Part shown: in pieces, positions 5,030-36,869 of the stretch
Layout of the letters: each line of letters starts with the position of its first letter
How positions within the stretch are numbered: the first letter of the stretch is position 1
From: Akkermansia muciniphila
GTDB taxonomy: Bacteria; Verrucomicrobiota; Verrucomicrobiia; Limisphaerales; F1-80-MAGS106
DNA: 64,000 nucleotides
NCBI GenBank assembly: GCA_945865375.1
Contig: CAMBEJ010000002.1
Span: 13,739-77,738 of the forward strand
Direction of reading: 5' to 3'
The notes under the pieces: generated by a model
What the model was told of the DNA's origin: nothing
The model's database searches: none
The model's input: the letters and a program-made list of their open reading frames with translations, nothing else
Program-made: the position numbers and the translations under genes

Positions 5030-8000
5030 ATGAACTTGCCCGTCCAGAATTGGAGAGCCTGCGCGAGGGGGATGTGGGCAACACTGTGGTCTTTGGTCAC
5101 CCTGGGGTTTGCGTTCACCACTTCCATTTTCGCCGCCGAAGACACGTTCCATTTGACCTCCGAATCGCCCGCATTCCCGTTGGACACGCGCCCAATCACT
5201 CCCGATGCCACACCAAAATCCACTCTGCTGATCGCCGAGTCTGATCCGTTTCCTTTGGACACACGCCCGATTGTGGGTGAGCAAGCAGGTCCAACGCGCC
5301 TTGTGGCCGAATCGCCGGCTTTTCCTCTGAACACACGACCGATCAACCCCGATGCGACGCCTCAGACCACTCGCCTTGTCGCGGAGTCGGACCCGTTCTC
5401 GTTGGACACGCGCGAGCGCCACGCCGATCTCAGCCAAAGTTTCCAAATCATTGCTGAAACGCCACCATTTGCCTTGGACACACGCACCAAGGGGGATGAT
5501 TCAAGTTTGTTGCGGTCGATTTTGGAGTCGGCGCCCTTTGCCCTGGATACACGCGGAACTCCCGCAACCCAAATTGAACAATCGCGCGACCTTCTGGAGT
5601 CCGCCTCGTTCACCTTGAACACACTTCCGATTCCGCCGCCCAAAGTGGACGGCTTTCCATTGACGGCGGTCTCCCCGCCTTTCGCGCTGGACACGAAAAG
5701 CGGGTATCCCACCACGCCCTTCCGCTTGACCGCCAACGCGGTGGGCGATGGGGTTAACGCGACTGTGGGTGCACTCCGGTTTTCCCCGGACGGTTTGCGT
5801 CTGGCGGCGGCTCAGAGCGGTCGGGTGCGGCTCTGGGACCTGCGCAGCACACGCGGCCCAACGACACTGGGCACCGGGGGAGCGGAAATTACATCCATGG
5901 ACTTTGCTCCAACGGGCGATCAACTCCTCACTGGAACCGCCGATGGCTTACTGCGCTGGTGGGACCCGGCCACACGACTGGAACTGGGACGCAAGTCCGC
6001 TGGGAACGGCGAGGCCCACGCGGTCTATTCCAAGGACGGCGCGCGTGTAGTGGCCGGTGCTGGTTCCAGCCTGGCTGTGTGGCGACGCCCCAGTTTCGAC
6101 GTGCTCGCCGCCTTGCGAGGCAGCGAAGGCGCGGTGACAGCAGTGGCGCTTTCCCCGGACAACCGATTTGTGTTGGCCGGGAATTCCGCACGCACCGCCT
6201 TGCTCTGGAACGCGGAGACCGGCGCATTGCTTGCGCGGTTTACGAACCACACGCACGCGATCACCGCGGTGGCGTTTTCTCCCAACTCGGATCGTGTGTT
6301 GACCGCATCGCTCGATGGGTCAATTCGAATATGGGACCTGCGCACACTGCGCGAAGTCGCCGTGATTCAGCAAGGGTCGCCCGTGATTGCGGCTTCCTGG
6401 TCACTTGACGGGCGCTTGGTTGTGTCCGGGAACAACGCGTCGCCGGGACAGGTGTTTCTCTGGAACGACCATGATGGATCGCTTCGCCGGGTCGCCACCG
6501 ACTTGAGCACGGAAGCGTCCAGAATCCAAGACATCGCCTTGTCCCCGGATCAAACGTTGCTCGCCACCAGTCATTCGGATGGCCGCGTCCGGCTCTGGGA
6601 CGCCGGAATGGAAGCATTGCCCGCCGATCCACCAATCTTGCTAACGCCGGGGCCGGAAACTCCGCTCACGCTGAGGTCGCACGGGCGATATTACTTCCAG
6701 GTGGAGGTTCCGTCGGGCCGGAGCTTGATCGTGCGAATGGAAACGGCCACCCTCGGCGTGAAGCCTCAGAGTCTGAATCGACGAGCCCACGGCTCATCGG
6801 ACGGAGTGCGCTTCGGGAATCGCGATTTGGGGGCGCGCGATGGGGCGGCCGCGCCCTTGGCGGTGACGAAAATCGAGAACCTGGACATCACCGCGCTTCA
6901 ACTGTTCATCGCCAAGGATCGGCTGCCAAATGTCCACGATTTCGACACCGTGATCCAAGCAACGGTGGCGAACATGCGGGCCGAAGCGCCGATCTCCTCG
7001 GTGACGGGTGGAACCTATTACGTGCTTGCGCTTTCGCCCTACCTGTCCGATGGCGCTATCCAAACGCGCCTTTCCGCCGCGTTCGAGGACTTCCACTTGA
7101 GCGCAATGGCACCGTTGAGTGGCGGTAACGTGGGCACGGTGACCGCGGAAATCCAAGGCACCGGTTTGAATCCAAGCGTGGGCTATCGATTGGTTGGCGC
7201 GGGTGGGACGATTGTGGCTGGCCGAGTCGCCTTGGGGGTGGATAGTACGAGAGTATTTGTCACCTTCGATCTGCGTGGCATCCCTCCAGGAGGCTTCGAA
7301 CTCATCGCGGAAAAATCGGGACAGGCAGGATCGATAGCGCTGGCGCAGAATTTCCAGGTCATCGTCGGCACCGGGCCCAAACTTGAAGTCCGTCTCGACA
7401 CGCCGCTGGCGATTCGAGCAGGGAGGGATTATGTAGCCTATCTCGAACTTTCCAACGTCGGCGACAATGACTCCGAGGTTCCGCTTTTGATGGTTGAATT
7501 CCAAGGACTCGGTGCTCTACGCTTGAAAGCGAACGGGCCGAATTATACTCAACGGTTGTCCCTGTTCCTTCCGCCTCAGTCAGACATTCTTCCCGTTTAC
7601 CCACCTGGCCGTTCCACACGAATTCCGCTCTATTTTACCTCAGGCTCTGCCGATATCCATTTTAAGTTGTCCCAAAGCAGCATTGGATCAACGGCTTTCG
7701 GGCCGCTGCAGCTTGATTACTCCCAGCTAACTCGACCTACCGATTTCTCCGAGACAGAGTGGGCTGACCACACAATTGCAATCCAACAGCGATACGGCGT
7801 CAGCTTGGGACAGTTCCTCAGAAATTCGGTCGCGACTGGTTTGAATGTCTTTTCAACTCACGAACCTTCGCGTTCATTCGTTGCTTTGGTGAATGGATCG
7901 TGGCTGATTCTCCGAAAACCATCAATCGGCGATCACCCCAACCTTCCGGTCCCTGAACTGCCAGAGCGCAAACGCCTCTCCCTGGTTGGCACATCTGAGT

Positions 8001-10111: not shown

Positions 10112-10282
10112 GAACAGTGACAATTATTATTCACGAAGCCGAGCCGAGGATGGCCACGATTCCGGGCCATGGGCGCTTATTCTAGTTCGCTTTAAACATG
10201 ATCCTAACATGGTTTCAAAACCACTTGTGAAACAGGCTTCATCAAGGATGATTAGTCTCATCTTGAAAAGCGCCTTGGAATT

Positions 10283-33700: not shown

Positions 33701-34586
33701 AAGCGAATCGATTCGGGCTTATTTCGGCGATCCCGATGGATCAGGTCATCTCGCCATACTCGAGGCGCACCGCGATCCCGGCCTTGGCCAGTGGATGCCA
33801 ACGAGGGATCTCTCGGCTCTAGGTGCCGTCTTCCCCACGCTGCGCGAGCGGTTCACGAACTTCACGGCGTTCAGCACAGCAACCATTCCTCAAGTGCTCG
33901 CGGCGGGACTCCCGTCAATGCGCGAGGTGTCCATCACGACCTCAGACTCGATGTTGCTGCTCAATCGCGGAGATCACTTCGCGGCACAACCGCTTCCGAT
34001 TGAAGCCCAGTTCTCGCCGGCTTTCGGCCTCGCAATCGGGGACCTTGATGGCGATGGCAATGAAGACGTATTCCTCGCGCAGAATGTGTTCAGCGTCTCA
34101 TCCGCTGAAAGTCGGCAGGACGCGGGAGTGGGACTTTGGTTGAGGGGCGATGGAAATGGCCGGTTGACGGCGGTGCCCGCGTCGGAGAGTGGGATCGCGG
34201 TCTTCGGAGAAGGCCGTGGGACAGCGGTGTGCGACTTTGACCATGACGGACGTCTAGATCTCGTTGTGGCTCAGAATCGAGGCCTTACAAAACTGTATCA
34301 CAACGAGAGGGCTCGACCGGGTTTGCGGGTTCATCTGACTGGCACGGCGGACAACCCGCAGGCTGTCGGAGCCCGGTTGCGACTGCTCTTTCGAGGAGGC
34401 GGATCTGGGCCTGTCAGTGAACTGCGAATCGGTGGCGGCTATTGGTCGCAAGACTCCCTCGACCTCGTTCTTGGAACCGCGAGGGACCCCGAAGCCTTGG
34501 AAATCCGCTGGCCTGGTGGAATCGTCGAGCGTGTTCCCTTGTCATCCAAAACAGGCCTCATCTCCCGGAGCATTCCCGTGAACTGA
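30735..34586 (+). CDS. CRTAC1/ASPIC-UnbV family protein with many FG-GAP/VCBS repeats
   Basis: Repeated GDVDGDGLCDLYF / ADVDGDGDLDLL / GDFDNDGRLDLIAGN motifs. C-terminal ASPIC/UnbV (AVGARLRLLFRGG..IGGGYWSQDS). Start uncertain: GTG 30735 lies before the signal-like VVSIACLAWFLTLAIAASFVRQAFA. The track ORF from 30345 overlaps the previous gene. Confidence 0.85.
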   Translation: MSDRRIFHRFSQLDSWRLLPRVVSIACLAWFLTLAIAASFVRQAFAVDWQPHTHYRAAALTPPASGKTGFTEMAPAVTGILFTNLLAESRSLTNQIFLNGSGVAAGDVDGDGLCDLYFCGLDSPNVLYRNLGGWRFENVTATAGVAFASQPSTGAAFADVDGDGDLDLLLNGVGSGTRLLLNNGRGQFRDVTAESGLHGTAGSASMALADVDGDGFLDLYIVNYRNDTMRDMPDIRFRLGVTNGLSQLLSVNGRPATDPELAGRFSFDRASGVLENGQADTLFHNDGRGHFTALSWTNGTFLDEVGMPISTPYDWGLSAMFRDMNGDGAPDLYVCNDFQSPDRMWINDGHGKFRAAAPEAIRQTSLFSMGVDFADIDRDGHDDFFVADMLSREHVRRQVQVMDATAFAQVRGSQDSRPQFSRNTLFLNRGDNTYAELAQLSGIEASDWSWCPAFLDVDLDGFEDLLVTTGHWRDAQHADVARELDDEKRRRSLSPLEQLRARRRFPRLDTPNAAFRNRGDLTFDEQGPEWGFDSRRISHGMALADLDNDGDLDVIINCLNAPPLLLRNDSSRPRVSVRLRGLAPNTRGVGAKIRVVAPGLPAQSQEMVCAGRYLSSDDFVRTFAAGTATNLLTLSVTWRNGRESLLTNVLANHVYEIDESATATARTQSTSLTPPGQKPHDLLFSSRIPVPPKPFFQDLSQRLNHEHVDEPFDDFALQPLLLRKLSELGPGVTWFDFNGDGWDDLFVGTGRGGRLAVFRNDAQGGFVRQRAKLFEVPSDTDLTSVLAWRPNPTNSLLLMGLANDQSAVTNAPAVRQFSLVTGEVLGNLLRAPSSTGPLALADFDGDGDLDLFVGGRMVPGRYPEAASSALLRNERGALRFDEEASRMFVGIGLVSGALFTDLDGDGWPELVLACDWGPIRILRNEHGRFTAWDPPLTRKDGMPPNPGFATLNALSGWWTSIAAGDFDNDGRLDLIAGNWGRNNARQRFLSESIRAYFGDPDGSGHLAILEAHRDPGLGQWMPTRDLSALGAVFPTLRERFTNFTAFSTATIPQVLAAGLPSMREVSITTSDSMLLLNRGDHFAAQPLPIEAQFSPAFGLAIGDLDGDGNEDVFLAQNVFSVSSAESRQDAGVGLWLRGDGNGRLTAVPASESGIAVFGEGRGTAVCDFDHDGRLDLVVAQNRGLTKLYHNERARPGLRVHLTGTADNPQAVGARLRLLFRGGGSGPVSELRIGGGYWSQDSLDLVLGTARDPEALEIRWPGGIVERVPLSSKTGLISRSIPVN

Positions 34587-34689
34587 AATGGATAGGGACT
34601 TGGTTTCTTATGGTTCACAGCACTTAATCATTGAGAATGGATTGGACCAAGAAAGCACACTGCCAACACGATGAGAAACGGCGATTTCC

Positions 34690-34723
34690 CCCCTTGGTGG
34701 GCCGTCGACGGCGCACCAAGGGG
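34690..34723. repeat. 34-bp near-perfect palindrome
   Basis: CCCCTTGGTG-G-GCCGTCGACGGC-G-CACCAAGGGG, with one mismatched pair. Lies ~100 nt downstream of the CRTAC1 stop. No U-tract. Confidence 0.9.
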
Positions 34724-34770
34724 CTCGGTTCTCCTGCGTCTGCAAAGAAGTTTGGAAAGGGCTCCCTTAG

Positions 34771-35225
34771 GTCCAAGGAGTCACCCATCTTAACATTTAA
34801 CAATTGATTTTGAAATTGGGCACATCACGGTCGTGTTCGTGTCCAGACCCCTGCGCATCGAGCGGGCGGGCGGTTGGTATCATGTCACCGCGCGCGGCAA
34901 TGAACGACGACCGATTTATCGCGGCGCTTGACGCTAGCGCGACCCAGTCTGGCGGCGGTGATTCAGGCTGTGCAGAAGGTGAAGTGTGAACCGTGGGAGA
35001 CATTTTGAAACCGCCACGGGGATCGTGGGCGGGACTTGGTGCTCTTTCTGGGACGCAGAATCTGCGGGCTAGAGTTGAAAGAACTGGCGCGGTAATCAGG
35101 CTTGGCGGCATACGCCGGAGTGGCGATGGCTGTAAAGCGATATGAAGCCCTTCGCCACCGGGACCCCGTCGAACAGGCGTGCTTCAGACAAGTGGTTGAA
35201 TTGTTGAATGTTAAGATATGACCCC
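34771..35225 (+). mobile_element. Decayed Y1 (RAYT/IS200-like) transposase unit bounded by inverted REP-like ends
   Basis: Left end GTCCAAGGAGTCACCCATCTTAACATTTAACAATTG (34771-34806). Right end GAATTGTTGAATGTTAAGATATGACCCC (35198-35225). The two are reverse-complementary over ATCTTAACATT(Y)AACAATT plus GTCA. Confidence 0.6.
34839..35221 (+). pseudogene. Y1 transposase (COG1943/RAYT-like) with DnaA_C-like HTH tail, internally deleted and carrying nonsense codons
   Basis: N-terminus (GTG) SRPLRIERAGGWYHVTARGNERRPIYR then TGA. A C-terminal part in another frame reads AVIQAVQKVKCEPWETF*NRHGDRGRDLVLFLGRRICGLELKELAR*SGLAAYAGVAMAVKRYEALRHRDPVEQACFRQVVELLNVKI*. The catalytic HUH/Tyr core is absent. 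Confidence 0.65.
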
Positions 35226-35242
35226 TAAAGAACATGAAGCTG

Positions 35243-35920
35243 TCAAAGGCCGCGGGCGGCGTCGCGCAGTTCCTGTTTGTAATCTCGGGTGGGTTCGCCG
35301 TAGCCGCGGCGCCGCTCGGCCAGGGCGGGAGCGATGATTTCGGTGCGCGGATCGATTTCGCGTCCAAAAAGCAGGGGCCACAGGCGAATGCAATTGTTCG
35401 CCAGATCGTGCCATTGCTCTTCATCGAAGCTGGGCCGGAACAAGTCGACCGCCAGTTGCAGCTCGCGAATCAATTCCGCTTCCGTAGGATGGCCCGTCTT
35501 TGCGACAACCACCCGGAAGGCCAACAGATCCTTTTCTTCCAGCCGATGCAGCTTGGCGATGAGGATGTCGATGGGATGCGGGAAGTAAAAGGTGCAGTGA
35601 CTGATCTGTGCCGATGTCGTGCGTTCGCGCCAGCGAGGAGAGGTTCGGAAATTCAATTCCGAGCAAACCTGAATGTAAAAAGCACTGTGTTCCCGGTCCA
35701 ACCCGGCGCGCTCGACCACACCGGCAAGTTCCTCGGCATCCGAAAACAGATCGACATCCGCGCTGGTCAACGTTTCGTCGACGCACACCTGAATGGAAGC
35801 CGAGCCGAAAACGGTAATTCGGAGAGCCCGGTCCGCGGGCAGGGCGGCAACCAACTTGCGCAGCAGTTCACCGGCCGGCGTGTCGAGTCGCGCGGAACCA
35901 CCCCATGAGTCCAATCCCAT
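35243..35920 (-). CDS. Nucleotidyltransferase-fold protein (DUF6036-like)
   Basis: RITVFGSASIQVCVDETLTSADVDLFSD (G-S ... D-x-D NTase signature); helical C-terminal half. Confidence 0.6.
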   Translation of the reverse strand: MGLDSWGGSARLDTPAGELLRKLVAALPADRALRITVFGSASIQVCVDETLTSADVDLFSDAEELAGVVERAGLDREHSAFYIQVCSELNFRTSPRWRERTTSAQISHCTFYFPHPIDILIAKLHRLEEKDLLAFRVVVAKTGHPTEAELIRELQLAVDLFRPSFDEEQWHDLANNCIRLWPLLFGREIDPRTEIIAPALAERRRGYGEPTRDYKQELRDAARGL

Positions 35921-36258: not shown

Positions 36259-36489
36259 ATGAACGATTTTCGCTTCGCCCTGCGCCAATTGCTGAAGAAC
36301 CCCGGCTTCACCGCCGTGGCCGTGCTCACGCTCGCGCTTGGCACGGGGGCGTGCGTTTCCATCTTCAGCGTGGCGCAGGCGATGTTCCTGCGGGACCGGC
36401 CTTATCGCGATCCCGCGCGACTCCTCTGGGTCTGGCAACGGGACTTCACCAAGCCTGGAAATGTCCAAGGGTCACATGTTAACATTTAA
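36259..36489 (+). pseudogene. ADOP/MacB-like ABC permease, N-terminal fragment only
   Basis: MNDFRFALRQLLKNPGFTAVAVLTLALGTGACVSIFSVAQAMFLRDRPYRDPARLLWVW is the canonical N-terminus of an ~800-aa permease family. The reading frame runs into the repeat at ~36464 and stops. Confidence 0.8.
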
Positions 36490-36534
36490 CACTTCAGGCA
36501 AGTGGTTGAATTGTTGAATGTTAAGATGTGACCC
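36464..36534. repeat. REPIN-like doublet: left and right REP-like ends back to back
   Basis: GGGTCACATGTTAACATTTAACA (36469-36491) versus the reverse complement of TGTTGAATGTTAAGATGTGACCC (36512-36534): 21 of 23 positions match. The right half (36492-34) is 41/43 identical to 35183-35225. Confidence 0.85.
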
Positions 36535-36869
36535 GTAAAGACACAGTTGTATTCACCATCGGGCAGGAATCCGCTGCGAATGAGTTCGCGGGAAAACTCC
36601 GCCGCGTAGCCGTGTTGAACGGGTTTGATGTTGAACAAGGTGACGCCCCATTTGGGCAGCATCGGAATGGCTTTCTTGGCGAAAGGCGTGCCGGGTTCGT
36701 GACCTTCGGCGAGGAGTTCCAATTCGATGAAGGCGGTCGGGGAAAGAAACAGCGCGCAGAAGCAGTCCCTCACGACACCGAAGAAATCACGGGCGAAGGG
36801 TTTTCCTTCGGCGAGATCAAGCAGGACATTAACGTCCAGCGAGCACTGTTTCCTTGGGGAGCTTGCCAT
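36486..36869 (-). pseudogene. PIN-domain (VapC-like) toxin-like gene, 3' end replaced by the repeat
   Basis: SLDVNVLLDLAEG...SPTAFIELE...GFLPDGEYN, then the frame reads through the antisense of the REP-like element (CVFTGHILTFNNSTTCLKC). The C-terminal acidic residue block is missing. Confidence 0.5.

Follow-up and report, generated by a model that had tools for sequence, protein, structure and literature searches.

The window analysed here is a stretch of 64,000 nucleotides (nt) from contig CAMBEJ010000002.1 (assembly GCA_945865375.1, positions 13,739 to 77,738), filed as Akkermansia muciniphila and placed in the Limisphaerales of the Verrucomicrobiota. All coordinates of unnamed loci are those of the window, and both units described below are given on its forward (+) strand. 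Two inverted arms, at 34777–34805 and 35199–35225, enclose a gene remnant of 455 nt, referred to as unit A, and some 1.3 kb away stands a short dimer of the same arms, unit B (36463–36543). The stretch 34770–35229 is very probably a dead, non-autonomous, internally deleted copy of a TIRtron, an element in which the gene of a tyrosine (Y1) transposase related to the transposases associated with repetitive extragenic palindromes (REPs), or RAYTs, lies between long terminal inverted repeats, and in this capacity it is an ordinary relic.

The end sequences on which a sequence-only reading of this DNA had been built are found where that reading had placed them. A repeat search returned the arms as 34787–34805 and 35199–35217, with 19 nt that are 95% complementary; if an indel of 2 nt is allowed, the match runs outward to GGAGTCAC on the left and GGGGTCAT on the right, giving the full arms at 34777–34805 and 35199–35225. 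The left repeat (GGAGTCACCCATCTTAACATTTAACAATT) is degenerate, with a 2-nt insertion as well as a G>A substitution in its G-run, and holds two tandem heptamers, TTAACAT and TTAACAA. The right repeat (AATTGTTGAATGTTAAGATATGACCCC) codes for ELLNVKI and the stop codon, with TGA being the reverse complement of TCA in GGGGTCA. The 20-mer core CATCTTAACATTTAACAATT (up to three mismatches) has four copies in the window, compared to 0.00 expected from 100 shuffles; two of them are the ends of unit A, and the other two form the tight inverted doublet 36469–36534 of unit B. The probability that the inverted repeat reflects chance similarity beside an unrelated open reading frame (ORF) fragment is negligible. 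Apart from the shortness of the arms (19 nt in exact register) nothing speaks for it, and it is refuted by the shuffles, none of which matched the 20-mer, by the perfect repeats of the intact loci L023 and L024, and by the inverted repeats found in 62 of 67 intact loci, as described below; the same 26-mer also flanks homologous genes in many phyla.

A tblastn search with the intact homologue P0098 placed residues 1–28 at 34839–34922 and residues 250–349 at 34919–35218, in another frame, so that the remnant lacks about 220 residues and with them the entire catalytic core. The N-terminal remnant (VSRPLRIERAGGWYHVTARGNERRPIYR, 34839–34927, residues 1–28 of 349 amino acids (aa)) reads in frame 3 and ends at the deletion junction, CGCG 34924–34927, after which an out-of-frame TGA follows at 34929–34931. 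It is 94% identical to protein P0010 of locus L147, which runs on into the HUH and Tyr core. The C-terminal remnant (34928–35221, residues ~250–349, frame 2) reads LARPSLAAV...ELLNVKI, corresponds to a helix-turn-helix (HTH) resembling domain IV of DnaA, and is 89% identical to P0001; it is interrupted by TGA 35006–35008 and TAA 35093–35095, whereas its native stop, TGA 35219–35221, falls inside the right arm. A homologue search yielded many proteins of PF01797 that are 80–94% identical over the N-terminal 28 residues, as well as short ORFs 89–92% identical to the C-terminal remnant. The deletion of the catalytic core and the three stop codons reported by the sequence-only reading are both present, residues 29–249 being absent and the stops beginning at 34929, 35006, and 35093; the coding of the last residues and of the stop by the right end is equally as it had described.

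The intact family to which these fragments belong, retrieved with a composite query, comprises proteins of ~349 aa in more than 7000 clusters (90% identity) at E<1e-10, with source labels of RayT or transposase and an origin mostly in the Verrucomicrobiota/Limisphaerales. After an N terminus identical in kind to that of the remnant, P0010 continues with NHYHLLL, the HUH motif, and SRYVHLN, which holds the catalytic Tyr. Across 38 aligned members, H60, H62, Y119, and W165-S-S-Y168 are invariant, and the motifs occupy positions 59–62 (NHYH), 97–102 (LFQGRF), 119–124 (YVHLNP, with the Tyr in SRYVHLNP), and 165–168 (WSSY). Intact homologues match the Pfam family Y1_Tnp (PF01797) at 3e-14, and their scores of 66.6 and 62.9 bits against NCBIfam NF047646 (REP_Tyr_transpos) lie under the curated cutoff of 80. 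In an AlphaFold model of a family member (pLDDT, the predicted local distance difference test score, 79.8), the fold is most similar to that of the E. coli RAYT (4er8, template modelling score 0.71 to the target), followed by the TnpA proteins of IS608, ISDra2, and IS200, whereas the sequence profile of the family matched no Y1 structures in the PDB. Profile positions 251–336 match DnaA domain IV (2hcb/1l8q, residues 220–310) with E=1.6e-5, and single sequences remain below threshold (Bac_DnaA_C, 0.0038 to 0.028; TIGR00362, 1.6e-4); judged by the profile, the C terminus of the family is DnaA-domain-IV-like. The identification of a RAYT-like Y1 pseudogene with a DnaA_C-type HTH tail is therefore borne out by the motifs, the Y1_Tnp match, the 4er8 fold, and the profile. 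The HUH and the catalytic Tyr, on which the sequence-only reading had staked this identification, are invariant throughout the 38 sequences, and the end motif, which it had expected to recur, does so in the doublet within the window and in arms in other genomes.

The ends of intact relatives were surveyed after the addition of 80 metagenome loci of 32–75% identity, with all intact loci analysed jointly; 67 of them are non-redundant and away from contig edges. In L023, the locus of P0098, the left repeat GGGTCACATCTTAACATTTAACAATT begins 59 nt upstream of the ATG, and the right repeat AATTGTTAAATGTTAAGATGTGACCC is its perfect 26-nt inverted copy, coding for ELLNVKM and the stop; L024 is arranged likewise. 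In L019, where the protein ends with LNCEM, the left repeat is GGGTCACATCTCAC, and GTGAGATGTGAC lies across the stop codon. An inverted repeat pairing the upstream region with the stop region scores above every shuffle in 62 of the 67 loci, with a median score of 22 for self pairs compared to 9 for cross-locus pairs. Intact elements are mostly 1030–1130 nt long and have the ends GGGGTC...GACCCC. Each arm starts with GGGG-TCA[CG]ATCT and continues with two tandem heptamers (consensus GGGG-TCA[CG]ATCT-[TA]AACATT-T[GA]ACATT), and the autocorrelation of the arms at an offset of 7 is 0.56–0.59, versus 0.28 in shuffled arms. The outer end is GGGGTCAC or GGGGTCAG in most intact loci, from which the window arms, GGAGTCAC and GGGGTCAT, are one base off.

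In 50 of the 62 repeat-bearing loci the stop codon is covered by the right arm, and in the family, too, the stop is mostly a TGA that corresponds, on the opposite strand, to TCA in GGGGTCA. The heptamers vary by sublineage, and the C-terminal peptide changes along with them, NCEM occurring with GTCACATCTCAC, IQNPEI with CTGGATTCTGGAT, and LQNAKM with TTTGCATTTTGCA. Identity at third codon positions is 0.79 in the last 8 codons, compared to 0.31 in codons 9–30 from the end, the comparison being ungapped and the latter figure only a rough control. From the stop overlap, the codon identity, and the covariation, it follows that the stop-spanning arm is the rule for this family and a constraint on DNA; since the right repeat is the last ~7 codons plus the stop, the C-terminal peptide (LLNVKM and stop) is dictated by the repeat. 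The overlap, taken as unusual in the sequence-only reading, is thus the ordinary state, and overlap with the 3′ end of a gene is marked ('3'ov') in the legend of Figure 9 of Di Nocera, De Gregorio & Rocco 2013 (PMC3733652). On the question raised in that reading, whether intact copies always carry the motif across the stop, the count is 50 of 62 loci.

The two arms differ in one respect that may concern expression. Of 53 elements, 38 have TTGAC in the left arm, mostly 33–41 nt from the start codon, compared to 11 with TTGAC in the right arm, which suggests a putative −35 box on the left. In unit A, the spacer between left repeat and start codon (34804–34838) opens with TTGATT at 34804, 35 nt before GTG 34839, where intact relatives have TTGAC(A). 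Consensus scans for sigma-70 promoters were negative at the window unit (34560–35300) and on the forward strand of L023, so that for this reading of TTGAC only the asymmetry and the spacing remain.

The arms are not REPs. Folded as single-stranded DNA (ssDNA), four single arms gave −0.1, −1.7, −1.0, and 0 kcal/mol (z of +1.5, −0.05, −0.7, and +0.35), and no internal palindrome or GTAG tag at the foot was found in them. A scan of one genome per species (185,579 species) for exact matches to CAYATSTTAACATTYAACA returned 36 stretches, with at most 6 contigs per metagenome-assembled genome (MAG), mostly in MAGs of Verrucomicrobiota and in a few of Lentisphaerae, Victivallales, Terriglobales, Leptolinea, and Eubacteriales; about 10 of the 36, which have no GGGTCA context, are probably chance matches. 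Paired arms in other genomes are spaced by 35, 65, 70, 110, 280, ~1100, and 1563 nt. These counts are lower bounds, since MAG assemblies break at the units and only exact matches were scanned, and nothing points to hundreds of arm copies.

Some arms occur alone. Scattered solo units of ~42 nt (GCC[GA]ACA-GGGTCACATCTTAACATTTAACATTT-CGTCTT[TC]C) each consist of one arm with brief conserved extensions, and the DNA to their left and right is unrelated; they are located at L039 2136–2161, L045 55–80, and L054 1341–1366, all three in one MAG (SPRUCE_113), and at L038 3776–3801. In L036 (CAMAWP010000325.1, labelled 'MAG: Akkermansia muciniphila'), decayed window-like copies bound both ends of the contig, and the assembly thus breaks at the repeat. 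In the copy at 463–488 of L036, GGGTCACATCTTAACATTC is replaced by TTAACACACCTTAACATTC, an odd local duplication. The species label of this contig looks doubtful; the element is otherwise seen in MAGs of the Limisphaerales/Pedosphaerales type.

In a classical REPtron, a domesticated single-copy RAYT gene has flanking REPs and is accompanied by dispersed REP singlets and REPIN (REP doublet) hairpins that the RAYT maintains. The repeat in such systems is an imperfect palindrome of 20–40 nt that forms a stem-loop, usually with GTAG, and typically exceeds 100 copies per host genome (Nunvar 2010, PMC2817692; Bertels & Rainey 2011, PMC3116915); the structure of the E. coli TnpA-REP is 4ER8 (PMC3479197). 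Unit A and its relatives share with these systems the protein superfamily and the closest solved fold, a gene between inverted copies of the repeat, and hairpin doublets away from the gene. The best match to 4er8, the 66.6 bits for REP_Tyr_transpos, the folding doublet 1.3 kb away, and the low gene copy number (1.9 per genome in Table 1 of Quentin et al. 2018, PMC6006769) all fit a REPtron. The arms, however, are not self-complementary and do not fold, carry neither a GTAG nor a CGTC tag, and, by the exact-match counts, number tens of copies at most instead of hundreds; the NCBIfam score lies below its cutoff, the protein is ~200 residues longer, including the HTH, and the repeat overlaps coding sequence. 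Several decayed copies per genome resemble the behaviour of an insertion sequence (IS), and no REPs were found near subclass 2.1 genes by Quentin et al. (PMC6006769). A REPtron is consequently improbable, and the description of the ends as REP-like in the sequence-only reading has to be replaced: the ends belong with the terminal inverted repeats of TIRYTs/TIRtrons (PMC3733652).

The sequence immediately outside the repeats defines the limits of unit A. (G)GTCCAAG directly precedes GGGTCA in unit A, in unit B (36463–36469), and in L147, with unrelated DNA beyond it. Since these three independent copies of the lineage have the outer left extension GGTCCAA (34770–34776 in unit A) in common, unit A probably starts at 34770/34771. 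On the right, TAAA is followed by GAACA (35226–35234). L149, a locus with the DUF6036 gene and no element, is homologous to the window up to ...GAACATGAAGC, and the homology breaks off at TAAA, placing the right end of unit A at 35229, at the latest at 35234; as only this one flank is common, the boundary in L149 could also mark a rearrangement. The conserved motif is subterminal, with GGTCCAAG outside the left G-run in the three independent copies and either TAAA or TGAA beyond the C-run on the right. Past the right C-run by 3–4 nt, on the gene-distal side, GA[AC]CA is found in units A and B as well as in L148 and L001, which are four of the five lineage copies; the sites compared were window 35226–35234 and 36535–36543, L148 ~478–489, L001 ~10166–10180, and L149 5678–5692. 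This motif may be a fixed target on one side, of the kind known from IS608, or it may belong to the repeat as its imperfect outer portion (GTTC vs GTCC). No consistent target-site duplication was detected among 56 intact elements.

Such features recall the IS200/IS605 elements (IS608, ISDra2), which move as ssDNA by 'peel and paste', possess subterminal hairpins, and insert 3′ of a fixed tetra- or pentanucleotide. The present family has its HUH/Y1 fold in common with their TnpA proteins, GGGGTCA is subterminal with 4–8 nt of lineage-specific sequence outside it, no target-site duplication is evident, and GA[AC]CA, a possible fixed pentanucleotide, stands unduplicated by one end only. It is nevertheless highly improbable that unit A is the remnant of a canonical member of this group. 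Hairpins are missing from both ends, which are inverted relative to each other and not alike in direct orientation, tnpB is absent, and GA[AC]CA may, as noted, be just a part of the repeat; in addition, the large multidomain protein of 349 aa carries YVHLNP, which is of the RAYT type, and not Y---Q (PMC6006769).

In PMC3733652, RAYT-like genes with long terminal inverted repeats are named TIRYTs, and the elements TIRtrons; they share the motif GGGGWSAS, and their repeats form moderately abundant families that occur as single copies, dimers, and groups, with the overlap of a repeat with the 5′ or 3′ end of a gene marked in the legend of Figure 9. In PMC6006769, 20 of 26 TIRYTs fall in TnpA-Y1 subclass 2.1, which is equivalent to Group 1 of Bertels; this subclass is characterized by NH[YF]H, FQ, Y[IV]HLNP, and SS after the Tyr, by a C-terminal Bac_DnaA_C, HTH_23, or HTH_28 domain, by the absence of REPs, and by a mean of 1.9 copies per genome. 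Group 1 is counted among the more IS-like RAYTs, with flanking 16-mers at ~12 per replicon, in Bertels et al. 2017 (PMC5581495). The present family matches in every listed feature: the RAYT-like Y1 gene lies between long inverted repeats that are not REPs and begin with GGGGWSAS (GGGGTCAC in relatives), the protein combines NHYH, FQ, YVHLNP, and SS with the DnaA_C-like HTH, and the copy number is low, with repeats found as singles and dimers and overlapping the 3′ end of the gene. By its sequence motifs, the family is TIRYT/TIRtron, that is RAYT Group 1 and TnpA-Y1 subclass 2.1, group 2.1.2. The window copy differs from a typical TIRtron in being a pseudogene without the catalytic core and in originating from a Verrucomicrobiota MAG lineage outside the earlier surveys. 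Judged by its homologies, unit A is a member of the TIRYT class by descent, not by function. The passages of PMC3733652, PMC5581495, and PMC6006769 at hand do not state that GGGGTCA supplies the stop codon, that the arms contain tandem heptamers, that the protein tail covaries with the left repeat, or that TTGAC marks the left arm.

The route of decay can be traced by comparison with a copy in a related sample (L147/L148), ~90–94% identical to the window remnant, in which residues 1–165 are intact and continue straight into the C-terminal domain, with ...GAGGGGCGCG joined to GCGCTTGACGCTAGCGCGACCC. In the window, the junction reads TTTATCGCG joined to GCGCTTGACGCTAGCGCGACCC, and comparison of the two junctions indicates that the window copy descends from a progenitor of the L147/L148 type by a further deletion of 422 nt between two CGCG. 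Thus, a first step would have removed residues ~166–249, as in L147/L148, and the second, between the CGCG tetranucleotides, residues ~29–165 including the HUH and the Tyr; point mutations would have added the two in-frame stops. Other copies of the lineage have different internal deletions, as in L001 and in L036 (residues 56–129 in one case, 56–129 as well as 168–245 in another). In public metagenomes, P0004, P0008, P0011, and P0095 are open ORFs of 89–118 aa that join the N-terminal 30–55 residues to the HTH tail, with P0008 ending in ELLNCKI; the existence of these fusions indicates that internal deletions like that of the window recur and are sometimes in frame. L001 and L002 (9600–10260), from two assemblies, are identical from the interior of the element rightwards, show scattered differences in its left ~150 nt, and are unrelated left of the left repeat, a pattern suggesting that two copies of the element recombined homologously and that the flank was rearranged in this way.

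The same fusions, together with P0001, an open 97-aa C-terminal ORF in L148, and the strongly folding unit B between convergent ORFs, are what could be cited for a remnant that still functions, either as a small HTH protein (such as the 39-aa ORF 35102–35221), as a regulator derived from the transposase, or through regulatory or terminator hairpins. Such a role has hardly any probability for unit A, where two in-frame stops lie within the HTH domain in addition to the frameshift at the junction, and where, besides the negative promoter scan, no terminator-like site was found in 34560–35300; chance ORFs are, moreover, to be expected in decaying elements.

Unit B (36463–36543, 81 nt, non-coding) consists of a left repeat (36469–36494) and a right repeat (36509–36534) that are 14 nt apart. 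It corresponds to an A-type element reduced to its left end and the final ~45 nt at its right end, and its interior matches the right-end interior of unit A (CTTCAG[AG]CAAGTGGTTG). As ssDNA it forms a hairpin of −22.4 kcal/mol (z = −8.8), and it would represent the extreme of the same decay, in which the two repeats alone are left and are able to form one long hairpin. The window contains one copy of it, with no flanking direct repeat; other MAGs contain repeat dimers with different spacers, each of them found once. In bacteria, miniature inverted-repeat transposable elements (MITEs) are deletion derivatives of IS that are left with terminal repeats only. Unit B is a MITE-like dimer of terminal inverted repeats accompanying a decayed TIRtron: it is short and non-coding, with two repeats and a 14-nt spacer, and descends from an A-type element that lost its interior. 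Unlike a MITE, it has no target-site duplication and no demonstrated amplification, and the enzyme presumed to mobilise it is one of the Y1 HUH proteins and not of the DDE transposases. A MacB-like permease fragment (36259–36489 (+), 76 N-terminal aa, MacB_PCD 1.3e-3) ends inside unit B, and the last ~14 codons (...GHILTFNNSTTCLKC and stop) of a convergent ORF (36486–36869 (−), 127 aa, no Pfam match) come from it. Since the permease gene breaks off where the element lies, unit B marks a point of rearrangement or deletion and gives both ORFs artificial ends.

The immediate surroundings of unit A contain a near-perfect palindrome at 34690–34723 (17+17 nt, CCCCTTGGTGGGCCGTC/GACGGCGCACCAAGGGG), which lies 50 nt ahead of the element and ~100 nt past the stop of a 1413-aa FG-GAP/ASPIC gene. 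It has no T-run, is not terminator-like, and was rejected as a REP, being single-copy in the window. On the other side, a DUF6036 nucleotidyltransferase-like gene (35243–35920 (−)) adjoins unit A. A weaker DUF6036 match is located at 7582–8130 of L001, 2 kb from a related element, and the copy in L009 is flanked by Uma2, PIN, and PhdYeFM genes. By these neighbours, the elements seem to sit in accessory regions rich in toxin-antitoxin genes.

In an intact TIRtron of ~1.1 kb, a single TIRYT gene, encoding the HUH/Y1 domain and the C-terminal DnaA-domain-IV-like HTH, is enclosed by terminal inverted repeats of ~26 bp, the left one 50–80 nt upstream of the start codon and the right one comprising the last ~7 codons and the stop. 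Its product would use HUH/Y1 chemistry to cut and rejoin ssDNA at the GGGGTCA ends or close to them. Unit A, with its gene gutted and only the TIRtron ends kept, cannot act on itself, and both units would be movable only in trans.

Several observations weigh against this interpretation of 34770–35229 as a decayed mobile element. No transposition of a TIRYT has been demonstrated, no experimental study of the mechanism was found in the literature searched, and mobility as well as the role of the repeats are deduced from sequence. An intact copy is not shown in the same genome, L147 being from a related sample. No true empty site was found: the DUF6036 orthologues P0219 and P0220 sit in other contexts, all 18 contigs with an identical DUF6036 protein carry the element, and L149, the only locus that can be compared, shares one flank and shows the right boundary only. 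The remnant pieces themselves had no match in Pfam or NCBIfam, and their identification thus rests on homologues. A partial Mantel test of coevolution between the HTH and the heptamers (left repeat against HTH, given the catalytic domain) was negative, with a partial rho of 0.003 that 238 of 500 permutations reached, although the test is crude. Finally, Y1 enzymes usually recognise hairpins, whereas the single arms here do not fold.

A more speculative proposal is that TIRtrons are a mechanistically distinct class of HUH/Y1 elements, with a putative reading of non-hairpin ends, ends wired to expression, and a GA[AC]CA signal. We regard it as possible but doubtful. In place of an intra-arm hairpin, the enzyme may read the duplex repeat, or else the long stem formed by the paired arms in ssDNA, in which case a dimer like unit B may amount to a 'giant REP' and the full element to a hairpin whose loop holds the gene. 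The left arm may provide a TTGAC box ~35 nt from the start codon and the right arm the last 7 codons and the TGA, so that end recognition, autoregulation, and the C terminus of the protein may be co-constrained. GA[AC]CA may, by analogy with IS608, serve as a signal for the target or for cleavage.

Unit A as such is inert and has no particular importance; what interest there is lies in the mechanism by which its class would transpose. For annotation, such units are to be recorded as decayed TIRtrons and repeat dimers, not as REPs or hypothetical ORFs; units A and B lend neighbouring ORFs spurious C termini and adjoin a truncated permease gene. The class is widespread yet little studied, and the name TIRYT appears in only two works of the literature searched. 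The regularities measured at the ends offer concrete substrates for a first biochemistry of a Y1 enzyme on inverted ends that are not hairpins.

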